Source of the DNA: a virus | Taxonomy: Duplodnaviria; Heunggongvirae; Uroviricota; Caudoviricetes | Virus record (IMG/VR): IMGVR_UViG_2657244940_000009 | Span: 1-8,998 of that record | Length of the DNA stretch: 8,998 nt | Direction: 5' to 3' (one strand) | Shown here: positions 1,172-6,449 of the stretch, piece by piece | How the letters are laid out: each line of letters opens with the position of its first letter | Position numbering within the stretch: the stretch's first letter is position 1 | The notes under the pieces: model-generated | Told to the model about the DNA's origin: nothing | Database searches by the model: none | What the model saw: the letters and a program-made list of their open reading frames with translations, nothing else | Program-made: the position numbers and the translations under genes

Positions 1172-3115
1172 TTACGGGTTATTCACTTCCACTGTTATAC
1201 TTTCAATCAGCACCGTATACGTCGCCGCTTTTGTGATATCCGTTACACGTAATTTGTCTGCCGCAAAAGAACCTACCGGAGACTGCGACAGCATGAACGG
1301 TGCACCATCCTGACCATCAATCACCGGCGTCACCTGAATGCTGTTATTACCGGCAAAACGGAAGCCCAGCGTATGCCATTCGTTGTCAAATGCGCCGAAT
1401 GACCCCAGCTTCGTGTTCTGGTCAGCGTTACCCTTGTGGTACATCACGTTGAGGTCTGTGGCATCGCTCTGTACGTAAAACGACGCCAGCAGATTGTTAC
1501 CGGCATTACCTTCCAGTGTGACACCCTGAGGCAATGAAGAAACCGGCCAGTACAGCGCCAGTGCGTACTGATTAGCCGTAAGCGCGCCATCGAGTTTAAA
1601 ACGACAACTGACAAGACCACCTTTACCCAGCAGGTCCGCACCATTACCAGCATCATGCTCAAGGTACCAGGGGGCTCTTCCTGTTTCCTTGGTCAGTTTC
1701 ATTGCCTTACCCCCGCTGGCTCCGGCATCATCCACGATTTGAGCCTTGCCACCTCCAGCAGCCCAACCCTGTGGTGTCAACCGTCCTTCAGACTCAGATG
1801 CCCGGTAAGCAAATAGCGTACTCATCGTCGTGGTGTCTGCGGGTGGCGTGGACGGTTTTGATGGTGTATCAGGTGACGGCTTCTCATCCGGTGGTGTCAC
1901 GGTCTGCCCGCGCATCAATTCAGCCGTGCGCCCTGCATGGAGCATAATAGCTGAGGCCAGACGGTCTGAAATGACGCCCCTGCGTGCCCATGAGCTGAAA
2001 TGGCTGTCACGCTGTGTCGAAACAAAACTGCCCTGGGTTCGGGATGCTGCACCGTAATACCCGACAGCCACAATATCCGGGTCTTCCGCCGGAGCATTCG
2101 TTGGCGTGCTCTGTCCATTCTCATCCGTCAGGAACGGTACAAAGAAAATATTCTGTGCTTCCCTGCCCTTGTAACCGCCATATACCGCCTCATATTTATC
2201 GGCGTTAAGATTCTTCCAGTAATACGTGGTGTCACCACAAATCCACGGCACCGAGCCAGCACTTCCGCCAACACACTGTGCAGAATATGCAGCCATATCA
2301 GCCCTGAACTGCTGCACCATAGTGGTAAACAGGCCGCTGTGCTGCTGACTGCCGTCCGCAAGATCATTTTCCCCCTGCATCCATACCACGGCCAGAAGCC
2401 TGTTTTTCGGGTTCTTCGACAGCGCCGCTTTTGTACGGAAGAGAAAATCCTGATACAGCGGTTTACCCACTCCCCAGCGGGCTGAATTTGCCGATGCGCC
2501 AGACGTTTCGCTGAACGTGCCGTCATTACCCACGGTTAAACCAGACCCGCCACGGCAACAGGGCACCAGAAGAATCCCGGCATTCTGCGGGATATAAGGC
2601 AGCAGTTTTTTGGCAATATGCAGCCCCTGACCGACAGTCCCGTACTGGCCCTTACTCAGGTCTGCATGAGGATGGTTAAGTGCGCTCATGTCCTGAACAT
2701 CATGCAGACAGTGGTCTGCCGGAATAACGTCATTGTATGCACAGATATCACCACCCGGCGTCACAGTGCTGCGACGGGCCAGCTGCTTAATACGGGAGTC
2801 AGGGCGATCATAGGTCTCCGGCAGAGGAAGCCCCTCACCATAGGCCATACCGTTCGACTGCCCGGCCAGGGGAATAACGTAGTAATACTCCGGTTCAGTG
2901 GTAGCCACTCCCGGAGAGCCACCAGCCCCTGTGTCGGGCACAACCACAGGCGTGGTCACATCACCCTCTGCGGCAATGGCCTGCATCAGTGTATAAGGCG
3001 TGATAGCCACAGGACTGCCAAACGGCTGCCAGCCTTCCTTCAGTTTTTGTGTCAGTCGCTCCGCAAGGTCTGACGGCGACGCCGCCCTGACCACGTCATA
3101 GTGTTTAAATGCCAT
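1172..3115 (-). CDS. nanS-p: Prophage sialate O-acetylesterase NanS-p (N-terminal DUF1737-like region plus SASA/SGNH esterase), 647 aa
   Basis: Track ORF 1172..3145 starts at TTG; the ATG at 3115..3113 has a strong Shine-Dalgarno (GGGGAGGAATA-ATG) and gives MAFKHYDVVRAASPSDLAERL, the N-terminus I recall for Stx-phage NanS-p. GQSN motif (IPLAGQSNGMAYGEG) is the SASA esterase block. Position (downstream of Q/tRNAs, upstream of holin) matches Stx prophages. Confidence 0.85.
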   Translation of the reverse strand: MAFKHYDVVRAASPSDLAERLTQKLKEGWQPFGSPVAITPYTLMQAIAAEGDVTTPVVVPDTGAGGSPGVATTEPEYYYVIPLAGQSNGMAYGEGLPLPETYDRPDSRIKQLARRSTVTPGGDICAYNDVIPADHCLHDVQDMSALNHPHADLSKGQYGTVGQGLHIAKKLLPYIPQNAGILLVPCCRGGSGLTVGNDGTFSETSGASANSARWGVGKPLYQDFLFRTKAALSKNPKNRLLAVVWMQGENDLADGSQQHSGLFTTMVQQFRADMAAYSAQCVGGSAGSVPWICGDTTYYWKNLNADKYEAVYGGYKGREAQNIFFVPFLTDENGQSTPTNAPAEDPDIVAVGYYGAASRTQGSFVSTQRDSHFSSWARRGVISDRLASAIMLHAGRTAELMRGQTVTPPDEKPSPDTPSKPSTPPADTTTMSTLFAYRASESEGRLTPQGWAAGGGKAQIVDDAGASGGKAMKLTKETGRAPWYLEHDAGNGADLLGKGGLVSCRFKLDGALTANQYALALYWPVSSLPQGVTLEGNAGNNLLASFYVQSDATDLNVMYHKGNADQNTKLGSFGAFDNEWHTLGFRFAGNNSIQVTPVIDGQDGAPFMLSQSPVGSFAADKLRVTDITKAATYTVLIESITVEVNNP

Positions 3116-3203
3116 TATTCCTCCCCTTTCCGGGATTTTCCTCAACAGTTGCGGGCCACGGTCCGGCTACACGGAGAATCAAAAGAGGAGAACCGCAGCC
3201 CGC

Positions 3204-3234
3204 AAAACGAAAAAGGCCGCGCAGTTGCGCAGCC
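3204..3234 (-). terminator. Candidate intrinsic terminator or attenuator in the nanS-p leader
   Basis: Minus-strand stem GGCTGCGC / GCGCGGCC (8 bp, one G-U), loop AACT, followed by TTTTTCGTTTT. Confidence 0.45.
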
Positions 3235-3298
3235 TTATCACAGATGGTAAAAATCAGAACACGATAATAAAAATACCTGATGTATATTCATGCGACCC

Positions 3299-3326
3299 GC
3301 CCGCCACTCACTGCGGGCTTTTTTTT
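3299..3326 (+). terminator. Plus-strand intrinsic terminator-like hairpin (opposite to flanking genes)
   Basis: gcccgc (3299-3304) / gcgggc (3313-3318), 8-nt loop, then T8 (3319-3326). Confidence 0.45.
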
Positions 3327-3334
3327 GCCCATAG

Positions 3335-3361
3335 AAAAGCCCCTCCGGAGAGGGGCTTTTT
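3335..3361. terminator. Bidirectional intrinsic terminator
   Basis: Perfect 7-bp stem gcccctc / gaggggc with 4-nt loop, flanked by AAAA on one side and TTTTT on the other, so a T-run follows the stem on either strand. Confidence 0.6.
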
Positions 3362-3601
3362 ACAGTGGTAGTGTAGACAATTTTGCATGGTGCCGGGTGC
3401 CTCCCGGTGAGTTCAGTATCAGCACCTGAACCCGCACAGAAAGGATAAGGGTCGGTGACAAAACACCAGTTGCTGATTGCCCCTCCGCTTAGGGGGATTC
3501 ACCATGCCAGTTTCTTTTAACAAACTCCCCGCAAACCAGACAACAGTCAACCGCCTGAATTGTGAGGTATTTAAAAATTTCAACGGGTAACTGATACCCT
3601 G

Positions 3602-3763
3602 CTAATCGCCTGATGCTTTCTTTTTCAGCAACGGGAAAGCAACAACCACCACACCCGCCACCAGCACACCGTCAGCCAGCACTGACATTATCCGGCTGCT
3701 GAAGTCCACCATCACCACCATCACCACCAGAAACAGCAGGAGCGCAACCACAGCCAGACGCAT
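3602..3763 (-). CDS. Small hydrophobic protein, 53 aa, two predicted membrane helices; start 8 nt after the TerB-like stop
   Basis: Manual translation: MRLAVVALLLFLVVMVVMVDFSSRIMSVLADGVLVAGVVVVAFPLLKKKASGD. Below the ORF-track size cut-off. Weak Shine-Dalgarno and a repetitive GTG/CAC-rich sequence, so a chance ORF is possible. Confidence 0.3.
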   Translation of the reverse strand: MRLAVVALLLFLVVMVVMVDFSSRIMSVLADGVLVAGVVVVAFPLLKKKASGD

Positions 3764-3771
3764 TTTTACCG

Positions 3772-4203
3772 TCACAGATGATTCTCCAGACGAAGGCCCA
3801 GAACACCGGCAATCTCTTCCAGCACCTTGCGCTCTTCCGGCTCTATTTCGCCGTCTGCTTCGGCAATGGCCACCGCCACATCCAGCACGTCTTCCGCTTC
3901 ACGCGTATCGTGTTTCACATCCTCGATCTCACGTAACGCCGCTCGACGACCAATTTTAAAGTTCGTATCCAGCTGACCGATAATGGTTGCGCTAATCGCA
4001 TTAATTTCTGACGTAAACGCGGACAACGCAGGCTGGTTACGCAAGACCTGCTCGATCTTCGCTTTCTCTGAAGCCTCACATTCACCATCTGCATAGGCCA
4101 CCAGATAGGCAGCATTAATAACCGCCTGTGCCAGATCACGTTTCTCAAACTTTTTAATTTCCACTGCCGCTCGGCGGGCTTTTTTACCAAAAATACCAAA
4201 CAT
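3772..4203 (-). CDS. TerB-like (tellurite-resistance TerB family) domain protein, 143 aa
   Basis: Track ORF 3772..4275 starts at a non-ATG codon; ATG at 4203..4201 has AAGGAA 7-8 nt upstream and gives MFGIFGKKARRAAVEIKKF. Two TerB-like segments (AAYLVAYADGECEASEKAKIEQVL and VAVAIAEADGEIEPEERKVLEEIAGVLGL) resemble the helix-aDG-helix repeats of TerB as I recall them. Confidence 0.65.
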   Translation of the reverse strand: MFGIFGKKARRAAVEIKKFEKRDLAQAVINAAYLVAYADGECEASEKAKIEQVLRNQPALSAFTSEINAISATIIGQLDTNFKIGRRAALREIEDVKHDTREAEDVLDVAVAIAEADGEIEPEERKVLEEIAGVLGLRLENHL

Positions 4204-4335
4204 CGTGACGTTCCTTTGGGTGGGTGAGCCAACGCCCGGGAGCGATCTGCCCACAGAGAAAGTCACACTGACCACTCCGTAAGCTCACCCCCGAAAGGCT
4301 CTGTGGTTGATATGCGCCGGGCGTGGCGCAGATAC

Positions 4336-4358
4336 AAAAAAAGCCCGCCGAAGCGAGC
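4336..4358 (-). terminator. Intrinsic terminator after the tRNA cluster
   Basis: Minus-strand GCTCGC-TTCG-GCGGGC (one G-U) followed by TTTTTTT. Confidence 0.6.
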
Positions 4359-4371
4359 CTGATAATAAATC

Positions 4372-4446
4372 TGGAGCGGGTAGCGGGAATCGAACCCGCA
4401 TCATCAGCCTGGAAGGCTGAGGTAATAGCCATTATACGGTACCCGC
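4372..4446 (-). tRNA. tRNA-Gly (anticodon TCC), phage-borne, glyT-like
   Basis: Hand-folded: perfect 7-bp acceptor GCGGGTA/TACCCGC, anticodon stem TCAGC/GCTGA, loop CTTCCAG, T-arm GCGGG-TTCGATT-CCCGC, discriminator U, encoded CCA. Position 8 is C rather than the usual U. Confidence 0.75.
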
Positions 4447-4449
4447 ATA

Positions 4450-4525
4450 TGGTGCCGGCTACCGGAATCGAACTGGCGACCTGATGATTACAAGTCAGTT
4501 GCTCTACCATTGGAGCTAAACCAGC
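4450..4525 (-). tRNA. tRNA-Thr-like (anticodon TGT) with degenerate anticodon and T stems; possibly a pseudo-tRNA
   Basis: Acceptor GCTGGTT/AGCCGGC pairs with two G-U; canonical D-arm GCTC-CAATGGTA-GAGC; anticodon stem only 3 bp with loop CTTGTAA; T-stem has one mismatch; discriminator A; encoded CCA. Confidence 0.5.
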
Positions 4526-4530
4526 ATGTT

Positions 4531-4605
4531 TGGCGGGACAGCGTGGACTCGAACCACGATAAGAAGGTTAACAGCCTTCCGTAATGACCTTTATACGACT
4601 GACCC
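4531..4605 (-). tRNA. tRNA-Asn (anticodon GTT), phage-borne
   Basis: Perfect anticodon stem GAAGG/CCTTC with loop CTGTTAA; perfect T-arm CGTGG-TTCGAGT-CCACG; acceptor GGGTCAG/CTGTCCC with one mismatch; discriminator G; encoded CCA. Confidence 0.7.
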
Positions 4606-4609
4606 AAAT

Positions 4610-4651
4610 AAAAAAAGCCACCGTTGCAACTTAAGAGTCACTAACGGCAGC
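4610..4651 (-). terminator. tR'-like terminator between Q and the tRNA genes
   Basis: Minus-strand 9-bp stem GCUGCCGUU / AACGGUGGC (two G-U) with a 17-nt loop, followed by TTTTTTTATTT that abuts the 5' end of tRNA-Asn. Confidence 0.45.
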
Positions 4652-4696
4652 ATATGCCAATAGTGTTGCTCATTTGCTCAATGATGTCAACACGTC
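4652..4696 (-). promoter_or_regulatory. Candidate pR'-like late promoter / Q-utilisation region
   Basis: Consensus -35 hexamer TTGACA on the minus strand at 4690..4685, just after the Q stop; I could not identify a convincing -10, so this is positional inference from lambdoid architecture. Confidence 0.25.
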
Positions 4697-5185
4697 CTAT
4701 GCTACATGTTTAATTTTCTCTACACGTTTCCGGTTTTTAAACGCACTATCCAGAACCGGGTAAATCATAAACAACGAGGCATTAAGGATTTCGTCAACTT
4801 CCCGTCGACAGGTTGCGAGCGATGGTTTTTGAATGCGCCCGCCGCCCCGGCATAACATCTTGCGAGGTCTTGCGACGCAATGATAGTAAGATGCAATGGC
4901 GTGCCTGGAAGAACCATGAGCGTAGTAGCTGAGGAGGATGCCGAAGGCTTTCTTGTCAATGTACATGACGGAATCGACGACCTGAGAAATCAACATTCCA
5001 TCATCATCATTACACATTGGCCTTGTCATAACTCTTCCCGGCTCTACGCTCTCCATGAACTTCGCTATTACGCTGCTCATGCGCTTTTCCAGACGACCTG
5101 AATAAACCCATGCGCCCCACAGTTCAAGCCAGCCATTCAGCCACTCGTGCTGTTCTTTGGTGAGGTTTAGTTCTCTTATGCCCAC
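4697..5185 (-). CDS. Q: Late antiterminator Q (phage antitermination Q family), 162 aa; start codon uncertain
   Basis: WGAW motif and Cys/His cluster ([14 protein letters not shown]) as in Q proteins of 933W-type phages as I recall them; immediately downstream of ninI with a 10-nt overlap; track start is GTG with GGAG/AAGG upstream. Confidence 0.8.
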
Positions 5186-5847
5186 GCGCCTTCTCCCTGT
5201 ACCTGAATCAATGTGAGGTTTCCGCAGAACACTGCGCCGGTATCGATATACATCTGGTTGGCAAACTTGAGTGGTTTCACTGCTGGCGTATGACCAAAGA
5301 TGAACGTGTCCGCGCCTTTAATTTCTTTCACGATCCCGTCTTGTGAGTTGCCGATTCGTTCGCGGTTCCAGATTACCTGCTGAGGATCAACTGGCTTTCC
5401 AAATTCGTATTCGTTACAAGGATAATCGGCGTGGCAAATGACATATTTTTTATCTTTGCTCACCAGTTCGATGATTAACGGAAGTTCTTCTGCTTTATGG
5501 GCAAGAGCTTTAGCCAGAATCTCTTTGTCGTAATCGAGATTGAAGAACCAGCCACCGCCATTAAGCAGCCAGTGATTAACGTTTCCACGCTCTGATAAGC
5601 CATCAATCATCATTTGCTCATGGTTTCCACGTACAGCTCTGAACCAGGGGAATGTGATTAATTCCAGACATTCGACGTTCTCTGTACCGCGATCAACCAA
5701 ATCGCCAACCGAGATGAGCAGGTCTTTTTTGTTGTCGAATCCAATCGTATCCAGTTTGTTCATCAGGTTCGTGTAGCATCCGTGCAGGTCGCCAGCTACC
5801 CAAATATTTCGGTATTTGCTGCCATCAATTCTTTCGTAGATATTCAT
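5176..5847 (-). CDS. ninI: NinI Ser/Thr protein phosphatase (lambda PPase homologue), 223 aa
   Basis: Near-identity over most of the length to lambda phosphatase as I recall it; metallophosphoesterase motifs GDLHG, GDLVDRG, GNHE; ATGA overlap with the ninG stop. Confidence 0.95.
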
Positions 5848-6449
5848 GCAGCCTCACTTCTGCTATTTCGCAGTTTTTTAAGTTTCTGTTGGTACTCTTC
5901 CTTGATCGCCTTGCACTCTTCGACAGTCCAGCGATGGCGGTTATGGTTTGATTCGATTTCATCTACTGCTTCCTGCCCGATGCGGCTAATCAGTTCGACG
6001 CGATACGGAACGAGATTTCCGCTTTTGTGCTGGTTGCACACCACGCATTGCTTGTGAATATTGCGTTCATCAAATCGGAGTTGAGGTGCCGCAGCAGTTG
6101 TCCGGTAATGTCCGGCATCCCACTGAGCAGACGTGAGCGTTCCGCACGAGATACATGGTAAGTCGCGGTCTCTTTCTCTGATGAAGGCGTTTACGGCTTG
6201 TTGGGCTTGTTTAATCCAGTAACTGCGGGGCTTTAAGGCGAGTTTTCGAATCTTCAGTTTATCTTTCTGTTTCTGCTCCTCTCGTCGTCGTTTCTTCTCT
6301 GCTGCTTTTTCCGCTTTTTCGCGTTCTTTACTTCGTCGTTCGAGTGCTAATTGAGTTCCGTGTTCCGGGCAGCACCACCACTGATTTGAGAATGCCGGGT
6401 GAAACCATTCTTTGCATATTTTGCATTTCCTTCGCGCTGGTTTAGCCAT
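5844..6449 (-). CDS. ninG: NinG (Rap) protein, 201 aa
   Basis: Strong match to lambda NinG as I recall it ([65 protein letters not shown]); Cys-rich motifs; TAATG overlap with the upstream gene. Confidence 0.95.

Follow-up and report, generated by a model that had tools for sequence, protein, structure and literature searches.

Convergent pairs of small RNA (sRNA) genes, placed between the coding sequence of a moron and a conserved open reading frame (ORF), have been described in eight Sakai prophages (Tree et al. 2014, Mol Cell 55:199, PMC4104026). Examples are EcOnc27/AsxR in Sp5, AgvB in Sp10 and Sp17, and EcOnc03 in Sp9 (PMC4104026). The published anti-sRNAs measure 51-60 nt and have a variable 5' end (PMC4104026), and the 5' ends of AsxR and AgvB were mapped by RLM-RACE (Tree et al. 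2014, PMC4104026). EcOnc27 gave Hfq-dependent northern bands of ~235 and 247 nt in Sakai (PMC4104026). The STnc100 family is the equivalent of EcOnc27/sRNA103 of O157. In EDL933, RNA-seq reads were obtained on all 11 STnc100 copies, one of which was confirmed by northern blot (PMC5331693), and PasD1 and PasD2 of EPEC are diverged, distant relatives of STnc100 (bioRxiv 10.64898/2026.05.13.724894). When 933W was scanned with Rfam models, STnc100 (207.7 bits) was located on the stx strand directly 3' of stx2B, and AsxR (88.1 bits) was located on the opposite strand, abutting the STnc100 3' end. The order in 933W is therefore stx2B, STnc100, AsxR on the opposite strand, a hairpin identical to the third hairpin described below, and nanS-p.

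The window analysed here is the whole 8,998-nt stretch of viral DNA to which all coordinates refer, and a lambdoid prophage has its late regulatory region here, on the minus strand (Table 1). A non-coding stretch of 486 bp (3116-3601) lies upstream of nanS-p, flanked by the DUF3927 moron gene and by nanS-p itself. The preliminary description had reported this gap, correctly, but had drawn its limits at 3146-3601; the lower limit was moved because nanS-p starts at the ATG at 3115 (MAFKHY...), in agreement with 933W and with the PGAP coding sequence of 647 aa in an identical locus. That locus is an E. coli chromosome in which the region is 100% identical, and DUF1378, DUF826, holin, lysozyme, Rz-type lysis and terminase genes follow downstream of nanS-p. 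The prophage in the window is truncated upstream of the nin region: at ~7640-7660 it gives way to chromosomal sequence with ogt, an abgR remnant and mcaS. The gap is homologous to the stx2B-nanS-p intergenic region of 933W (68-77% identity), with a mean column identity of 77% over the syntenic stretch. It shares with the EcOnc27/AsxR pair of Sp5/933W the position between a moron coding sequence and nanS-p, downstream of Q and pR' (the latter predicted in the window), as well as the gene order, orientation, abutting 3' ends, identical third hairpin and homologous nanS-p start; the moron here consists of a TerB-family gene and DUF3927, whereas in Sp5/933W it is stx. The gap is very likely a convergent sRNA cassette of the kind typical of lambdoid (Stx-type) prophage late regions, working by the mechanism set out below. 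The layout was published in 2014, and what is new here is a rare, uncharacterised anti-sRNA allele.

Table 1. Features of the window, from the upstream to the downstream end of the late (minus) strand.
Feature	Position	Strand	Basis
NinG gene	6449..5844	minus	Pfam
Ser/Thr phosphatase gene	5847..5176	minus	Pfam
Antiterminator Q gene	5185..4697	minus	PF06530
TTGACA promoter-like site	4689..4684	minus	by eye
Hairpin followed by T7	near 4640..4612	minus	by eye
Three tRNAs	4605..4372	minus	tRNA and Rfam scans
TerB-family gene	4275..3772	minus	Pfam
DUF3927 gene (moron)	3775..3602	minus	Pfam
Conserved block TTTTTAAATACC-TCACAATTCAG-GCG-GTTGAC-TGTTGTCTG, upstream of the Rfam 5' boundary	3537..3575	minus	column conservation
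STnc100-family sRNA gene	3327..3536	minus	Rfam RF02076
STnc100 internal hairpin 1, CCCCC-UAAGCG-GAGGGG	3480..3497	minus	RF02076 paired positions 42-58; unchanged relative to 933W
STnc100 internal hairpin 2, CCGGG-AGGCA-CCCGG	3396..3410	minus	paired in RF02076 alignment
Bidirectional intrinsic terminator, predicted (minus: STnc100 3' hairpin; plus: backup for the plus-strand sRNA)	3335..3361	both	RF02076 terminal helix
Intrinsic terminator of the anti-sRNA, predicted, GCCCGC/GCGGGC + U8	3299..3326	plus	folding, consensus scan
AsxR/AgvB/EcOnc03-type anti-sRNA gene, rare allele, ~65 nt	3262..3326	plus	AsxR position in 933W alignment; family model
Plus-strand sRNA promoter, predicted (-35 TTGCGC 3225-3230, spacer 17-18 nt, -10 TAAAAAT 3248-3254)	3225..3254	plus	conservation
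Third hairpin, 10-bp G+C-rich stem, then UUUCGUUUU	3204..3236	minus	folding; letters identical to 933W
Long stem of the nanS-p 5' UTR, 16 bp	3149..3205	minus	folding and covariation
nanS-p ribosome-binding site GGAGG and start ATG	3124..3120; 3115..3113	minus	alignment with 933W L0105
nanS-p, sialate O-acetylesterase, downstream late gene	1172..3115	minus	Pfam DUF1737, SASA, DUF6645 and annotation

Hairpins were evaluated by folding energy against 200 shuffles. The five hairpins listed in the preliminary description were recovered within a few bases of where it had placed them and proved stronger than chance, and for the three terminator-like ones the observed energy was matched by 0 of 200 shuffles. 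For the palindrome at 3335-3361 (AAAAGCCCCTCCGGAGAGGGGCTTTT), the folding energy is -20.1 kcal/mol (z -5.65) when read on the minus strand and -19.8 kcal/mol (z -4.77) on the plus strand. The plus-strand hairpin at 3299-3318, which reads GCCCGC-CACTCACT-GCGGGC and is followed by T8 to 3326, folds at -12.5 kcal/mol (z -3.63), and the minus-strand third hairpin at 3236..3213, with 10 bp of which 7 are G-C and with TTTCGTTTT running to 3204, folds at -19.2 kcal/mol (z -4.40). All three sites combine a G+C-rich hairpin with a U-tract and are stabler than shuffles (z -3.6 to -5.7), and termination is predicted at each. A consensus scan counted three terminator-like sites in 3116-3601, compared with 0.7 +/- 0.8 in shuffles, and the best two of the 9-kb window both fall in the gap. 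The stem letters of the 3335..3361 palindrome vary from module to module (GCCCCUC.., GGCCUCUC.. or GGCUCCUC..) with pairing kept. The 16-bp stem at 3149-3205 is additional to the five hairpins described earlier.

Homology shows 3536..3327 to be a putative gene for an Hfq-type sRNA of the STnc100 family, which would end at the 3361..3335 hairpin. With 144 bits (E 1e-32), the covariance match, which covers model positions 1-206 of 206, exceeds the gathering threshold of 47. The short stems at 3396-3410 and 3480-3497, which had been noted earlier simply as further stems, are the conserved internal helices of the STnc100 model, CCGGGAGGCACCCGG and CCCCCUAAGCGGAGGGG, and a 27-nt core that includes hairpin 2 was found exactly in >120 viral contigs. 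When genome contigs were searched with the core, the only matches were an E. ruysiae locus and an 888-bp 'Xanthomonas' contig that is probably a contaminant. The gene lies in the late region, 3' of a moron (stx in 933W) and 5' of nanS-p, and it begins 65 nt past the DUF3927 stop codon, as the 933W copy begins 75 nt past stx2B. It scores lower than the 933W copy (144 versus 208 bits) and differs from it in the central variable segment (model positions ~59-97); the northern probe used for EcOnc27 has its match in the 3' part of the 933W gene. Assignment to the PasD type was ruled out, since PasD2 scores 41 bits and its intergenic region has neither an antisense gene nor the third hairpin. A PasA-like sRNA was also sought in the window, and no match was obtained.

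The true 5' end of the STnc100 RNA is probably further upstream than the Rfam boundary, around 3561-3565, because the EcOnc27 bands of ~235/247 nt exceed the 206-nt model. Column conservation over 70 unique upstream sequences, which follow differing upstream genes, rises from ~0.3-0.4 to 0.7-0.9 at the 3537..3575 block, and a block of this type is repeated ahead of the second copies in tandem arrays. The block holds either the 5' end of the sRNA or its promoter. A scan with the sigma-70 consensus for an STnc100 promoter found none, and the candidates picked by eye were unconvincing: TTAAAT at 3574..3569 is preceded by a poor -35, and the conserved TTGAC is followed by no usable -10. Because no convincing promoter was found, the STnc100 RNA is possibly processed from the moron mRNA.

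On the plus strand, homology shows a predicted gene for a short (~65 nt) anti-sRNA of the AsxR/AgvB type with a conserved, predicted promoter of its own. The preliminary description had argued from the plus-strand terminator that a plus-strand sRNA or antisense RNA ends here, and this is borne out: the terminator coincides in position with that of AsxR in 933W and lies behind a promoter that is conserved in every related module. The arrangement is convergent, with the anti-sRNA ending at 3326 and STnc100 at 3327 and with the terminator abutting the STnc100 3' end, in alignment with AsxR of 933W. Transcription is predicted to start at 3260-3262, giving a predicted length of 62-67 nt. The RNA would read CGAUAAUAAAAAUACCUGAU-GUAUAUUCAUGC-GACCC-GCCCGCCACUCACUGCGGGC-U8 and is made up of a 5' variable region (CGAUAAUAAAAAUACCUGAU), a stem (GUAU-AUUC-AUGC) and the terminator, whose closing pair covaries (A-U in AsxR, C-G in the window, U-A in the variant L019). 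Its start, CGAUAAU, is shared with AsxR. Positions 5-13 of the RNA (AAUAAAAAU) form three perfect A-R-N repeats that are unpaired, as expected of a ligand of the Hfq distal face.

The anti-sRNA resembles AsxR, AgvB and EcOnc03 in its promoter, 5' CGAU start, A-R-N-rich variable 5' region, GUAU..CAUGC stem, GCCCG..CGGGC-Un terminator and convergent partner, and it differs from them in length (~65 versus 51-60 nt) and in a diverged linker and terminator loop. On the Rfam models it falls below both thresholds (AsxR, RF02703, 22.2 bits versus 63; AgvB, RF02702, 13.9 versus 56), and the published conserved 3' region of ~42 nt (GUAUCUCAUGCnnUUGCCCGAACCCAnUCGGGCUUUU) is absent in that form, its motif being recognisable but diverged (GUAUAUUCAUGCGACCCGCCCGCCACUCACUGCGGGC). 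Other Rfam matches at permissive thresholds (Leu/Phe/Trp leaders, SorY, STnc370, istR and others) were set aside as generic terminator matches far below their thresholds. A family model was built from AsxR, AgvB, EcOnc03 and two class-3 relatives, with the window sequence excluded; its best match in the window on either strand was 3262-3325 of the plus strand, a weak hit of 22.2 bits (E ~1e-3 by a rough calibration), and the next scored 9.4 bits. Class 3 is the closest class, and the window form departs from it by an insertion of 7 nt and by altered linker and terminator sequences. The allele differs from all four published anti-sRNAs, and its 5' region from the three published specificities. 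Among 5426 complete E. coli genomes, 17 contain the allele, none of them with an annotation for it, and it is 98-100% conserved across strains that are unrelated to each other and come from water, pigs, cattle and humans; NMBU-W12E19 and JKHS016 are two of its carriers. Pairing of the anti-sRNA 5' region with STnc100, McaS, the pR' short RNA region and the nanS-p 5' UTR was looked for, and none was above shuffled controls.

The >120 viral contigs with the STnc100 core were reduced to 77 unique modules, 43 of which include the nanS-p start. Among these 43, TTGCGC is present on the antisense strand in all, and a -10 hexamer (TATTAT, TAAAAT or AAAAAT) follows 18 nt after it in 42. The Rfam AsxR and AgvB models have their 5' end (CGAU...) 6 nt past the -10 in AsxR, AgvB and class 3, and every module ends in a hairpin and T-run abutting STnc100. 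The promoter agrees with the consensus at 8 of 12 positions and was missed by the promoter scan. The transcribed bodies behind this conserved promoter belong to unrelated classes, namely AsxR, AgvB, class 3 (body CGAUUAUAAAAAUGUAUAUCUCAUGC...), the window form, the single-variant body of L019, a GU-rich class (body CUUCACGUUUUGUUGUUUAUUCCUUGCC..., with no Rfam family) and a smaller related group (...UUCAUAUUGUUUCUUCUUGCC..., for example L021, L034 and L045) in which body and terminator differ. The GU-rich antisense class corresponds to a putative sRNA in EPEC RIL-seq. This shows the cassette to be modular, with unrelated sRNA bodies placed behind one invariant promoter and with reassortment between the alleles of STnc100 and of the antisense gene. 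The cassette was also found where the downstream gene is not nanS-p.

The third hairpin overlaps this promoter. Its loop and stem contain the -35, of which the invariant TGCGCAA core is the complement, and its U-tract is, on the opposite strand, an A-tract (3204-3214) at ~-47 to -57, an UP-element-like position upstream of the anti-sRNA promoter. Conservation of the hairpin is partly explained by the promoter. For modules of the window's class, the balance of evidence favours a second terminator of the late strand: the strong form (full 10 bp, -15 to -19 kcal/mol) with its U-tract is intact in all AsxR-type modules, its energy and z-score are on a par with those of the two accepted terminators, and pairing is kept through G-U substitutions and through a re-registered CCUUGC/GUAAGG stem. 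It is possible, though somewhat doubtful, that the hairpin is no terminator and that the site is kept only for the -35 TTGCGC and the UP-element-like A-tract, with the palindrome incidental. That alternative draws on the invariance of TGCGCAA (43 of 43 modules), on loss or shortening of the stem arms in 25 of 43, of which 22 fold at -7 to -9 kcal/mol and 3 have no hairpin at the site, on the location of the A-tract in the UP-element zone, and on CTGCGC-AA-CTGCGC, which doubles as a direct repeat; in modules of the GU-rich antisense class the stem is cut to 5-6 bp or lost and the core stays constant.

Covariation across homologous prophages, which the preliminary description had proposed as a check, was examined from the third hairpin to nanS-p, and both this hairpin and the stem in the 5' UTR were found to keep their pairing despite changes. 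The segment 3146-3261, comprising the long stem and the third hairpin, folds at z -5.0. Over 21 distinct homologues, the 3149-3205 stem is 84.6% paired with 7 of 15 pairs changed on both sides, and pairing of the whole structure amounts to 72% versus 31-47% in slid controls.

The window resembles a late operon of the lambda type (pR'-qut-tR', with the StxS/6S short RNA) in that a Q gene (PF06530) lies upstream and is followed by a TTGACA promoter-like site and by a hairpin with T7, and in that predicted intrinsic terminators lie within it, ahead of nanS-p and the lysis genes. It is unlike such an operon in that the early region that would drive Q is absent from the truncated element. In Stx2a strains, nanS-p rises by 1 to 2.4 logs on mitomycin C treatment, as measured by qPCR (PMC10462455). 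Since the late operon is downstream of Q and nanS-p is induced by mitomycin C, it is reasonable to suppose that the terminators are crossed only by antiterminated polymerase, and expression of nanS-p by Q-dependent read-through is plausible. Truncation at ~7640-7660 leaves Q with no early-region promoter within the window, so that Q-dependent expression by the element itself is doubtful, and Q may never be made in the truncated prophage.

The preliminary description had treated the whole gap as an anonymous structured cis-acting leader of nanS-p. That view did not hold, as ~275 of its 486 bases belong to two trans-acting sRNA genes of known families, to which four of the five listed hairpins also belong. 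A region that is chiefly a terminator-rich cis-acting leader, making nanS-p Q-dependent through hairpins that are attenuators instead of RNA-gene ends, would account for three strong terminator-like sites in 486 bp, for the late-operon position downstream of Q with induction of nanS-p together with stx2a, and for a conserved, covarying 5' UTR stem directly before the ribosome-binding site. It is nevertheless very unlikely: the four hairpins lie in sRNA genes with family matches or with published homologues expressed in cultures without induction, one terminator points away from nanS-p, and the cassette also occurs ahead of other downstream genes.

The truncation of the prophage, joined to the chromosomal ogt/mcaS region, and the rarity of the anti-sRNA allele might also suggest a decaying relic of a defective prophage, in which the late transcript and the sRNAs no longer matter. 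There is little reason to expect this, as promoter, both terminators, STnc100 core helices and the nanS-p reading frame are all intact, the same allele is nearly unchanged among strains from unrelated sources, and sRNAs with promoters of their own need no Q. Least probable by far, to the point of near exclusion, is that the region encodes small proteins, such as a 54-codon TTG ORF at 3583..3419 or an annotated 'hypothetical protein'. ORFs of 48-54 codons are present on both strands, some RefSeq genomes annotate a hypothetical protein, and ribosome footprints were reported on some EDL933 STnc100 copies (PMC5331693). However, the annotated feature is a pseudogene fragment that lies on the opposite strand and contains an internal stop, the 933W alignment places indels of 1, 5 and 11 nt inside the ORFs, and the sequence fits a structured-RNA model with compensatory changes. 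A coding role of the small ORFs was rejected on the grounds of those indels and that stop.

The convergent sRNA cassette would work as follows. By analogy with their homologues, each sRNA would be transcribed in the lysogen from a promoter of its own, and both would act in trans via Hfq. The A-rich 5' variable region of the anti-sRNA would bind Hfq, and the anti-sRNA would sequester a core sRNA, in the way described for AsxR and FnrS and for AgvB and GcvB. The anatomy of the gap suggests that on either strand a first terminator is backed up by another, the bidirectional hairpin serving the plus strand and the 3236..3213 hairpin the late strand, and these paired terminators would insulate nanS-p and the lysis genes from transcription begun at the promoters of the sRNAs, the tRNAs and the moron. 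Passage across all terminators, and with it expression of nanS-p, would be reserved for Q-modified polymerase coming from pR'; meanwhile this polymerase would run head-on through the promoter and gene of the anti-sRNA and produce a perfect antisense to it. The third hairpin would have a dual role, as a late-strand terminator and, in its loop, as the -35 of the convergent promoter.

A more far-reaching joint reading, which is rather unlikely as a whole, takes the plus-strand RNA as a further anti-sRNA specificity class, a sponge for a core sRNA other than GcvB or FnrS, and the third hairpin as a two-way switch (late-strand terminator, -35 in the loop, UP element in the U-tract). If it were true, Q-antiterminated transcription would occlude the anti-sRNA promoter and form a 65-bp perfect antisense duplex with the anti-sRNA, and at induction the sponge would thereby be removed, or the late mRNA cut immediately ahead of nanS-p.

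Of 5426 complete E. coli genomes, 2894 contain at least part of the gap, in up to 10 copies per genome, and this common intergenic region carries no sRNA annotation in the genome records inspected. The conserved hairpin upstream of nanS-p overlaps the anti-sRNA promoter, which is relevant to mapping the control of nanS-p and the lysis genes. Prophage anti-sRNAs rewire the core networks of pathogenic E. coli, AgvB acting through GcvB on amino-acid uptake and AsxR through FnrS on haem use. Three 5' specificities have been described so far; a fourth natural allele, carried by non-Stx prophages of isolates from water, livestock and humans, would enlarge this set and offer a new sponge/target pair.

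The AsxR slot, which is the position of the plus-strand anti-sRNA gene in the convergent sRNA cassette upstream of nanS-p, is filled by a widespread class of GU-rich antisense sRNAs, consisting of CUUCACGUUUUGUUGUUUAUUCCUUGCC and a terminator and using the same promoter as AsxR, in L042, L002, and about 25 others of the homologous loci collected for comparison. The class also occurs in the E2348/69 intergenic region E2348C_1409-1408 and matches a putative sRNA from EPEC RIL-seq. No family for it was present in Rfam. An ncRNA label for STnc100 or the anti-sRNA was absent from all annotated records inspected. At locus L126 (1735-1863) and in several RefSeq genomes, the STnc100 sequence is spanned on the opposite strand by a pseudogene (internal stop, incomplete) named ‘hypothetical protein’ by PGAP.

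Other features of the window are listed in the table below. ARAGORN did not call the middle tRNA, which PGAP annotates as Thr in the identical locus. The region following Q (4612-4689, minus strand) is probably pR'/tR', yielding a short StxS/6S-like RNA; it ranked second among matches to the anti-sRNA model, with a non-significant score of 9.4 bits.

Features of the window outside the sRNA cassette
Feature	Position	Strand	Remarks
Three tRNA genes and terminator	4341-4605	-	Asn-GTT, middle tRNA, Gly-TCC
Strong terminator	4360..4341	-	After tRNA genes, before TerB-family moron gene
Hairpin and T7	near 4640..4612	-	Downstream of TTGACA promoter-like site
Promoter-like TTGACA	4689..4684	-	Directly 3' of Q stop codon
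Prophage/chromosome junction	~7640-7660		
McaS/IsrA sRNA, full-length	8603-8698	-	RF00115, 112.8 bits

The P22AR-domain ORF by the junction (7246..7638) encodes 130 aa, versus 224 aa in an intact relative, and the immunity, replication, N, and int region is missing from the element on this side. Chromosomal DNA, including ogt (7741-8256), lies to the right with 99.5% identity, and this exact junction was found in no complete RefSeq E. coli genome. The McaS/IsrA gene is located ~350 bp from ogt, and all that lies near it is part of an IS1 and what is left of abgR (LysR), whereas in K-12 the interval between ogt and mcaS is occupied by the abg operon.

Tandem STnc100-type pairs, with 50-300 nt between copies, were detected in six viral contigs (L011, L056, L057, L015, L036, and L025), and each copy is preceded by the conserved block TCACAATTCAG..GTTGAC. 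An exact match to the E. coli-prophage STnc100 core in an 888 bp contig labelled ‘Xanthomonas pisi’ (L123, NZ_JPLE01000080.1) is most likely due to assembly contamination. The STnc100 allele of the window was found elsewhere beside very different downstream partners, so the cassette is mosaic.
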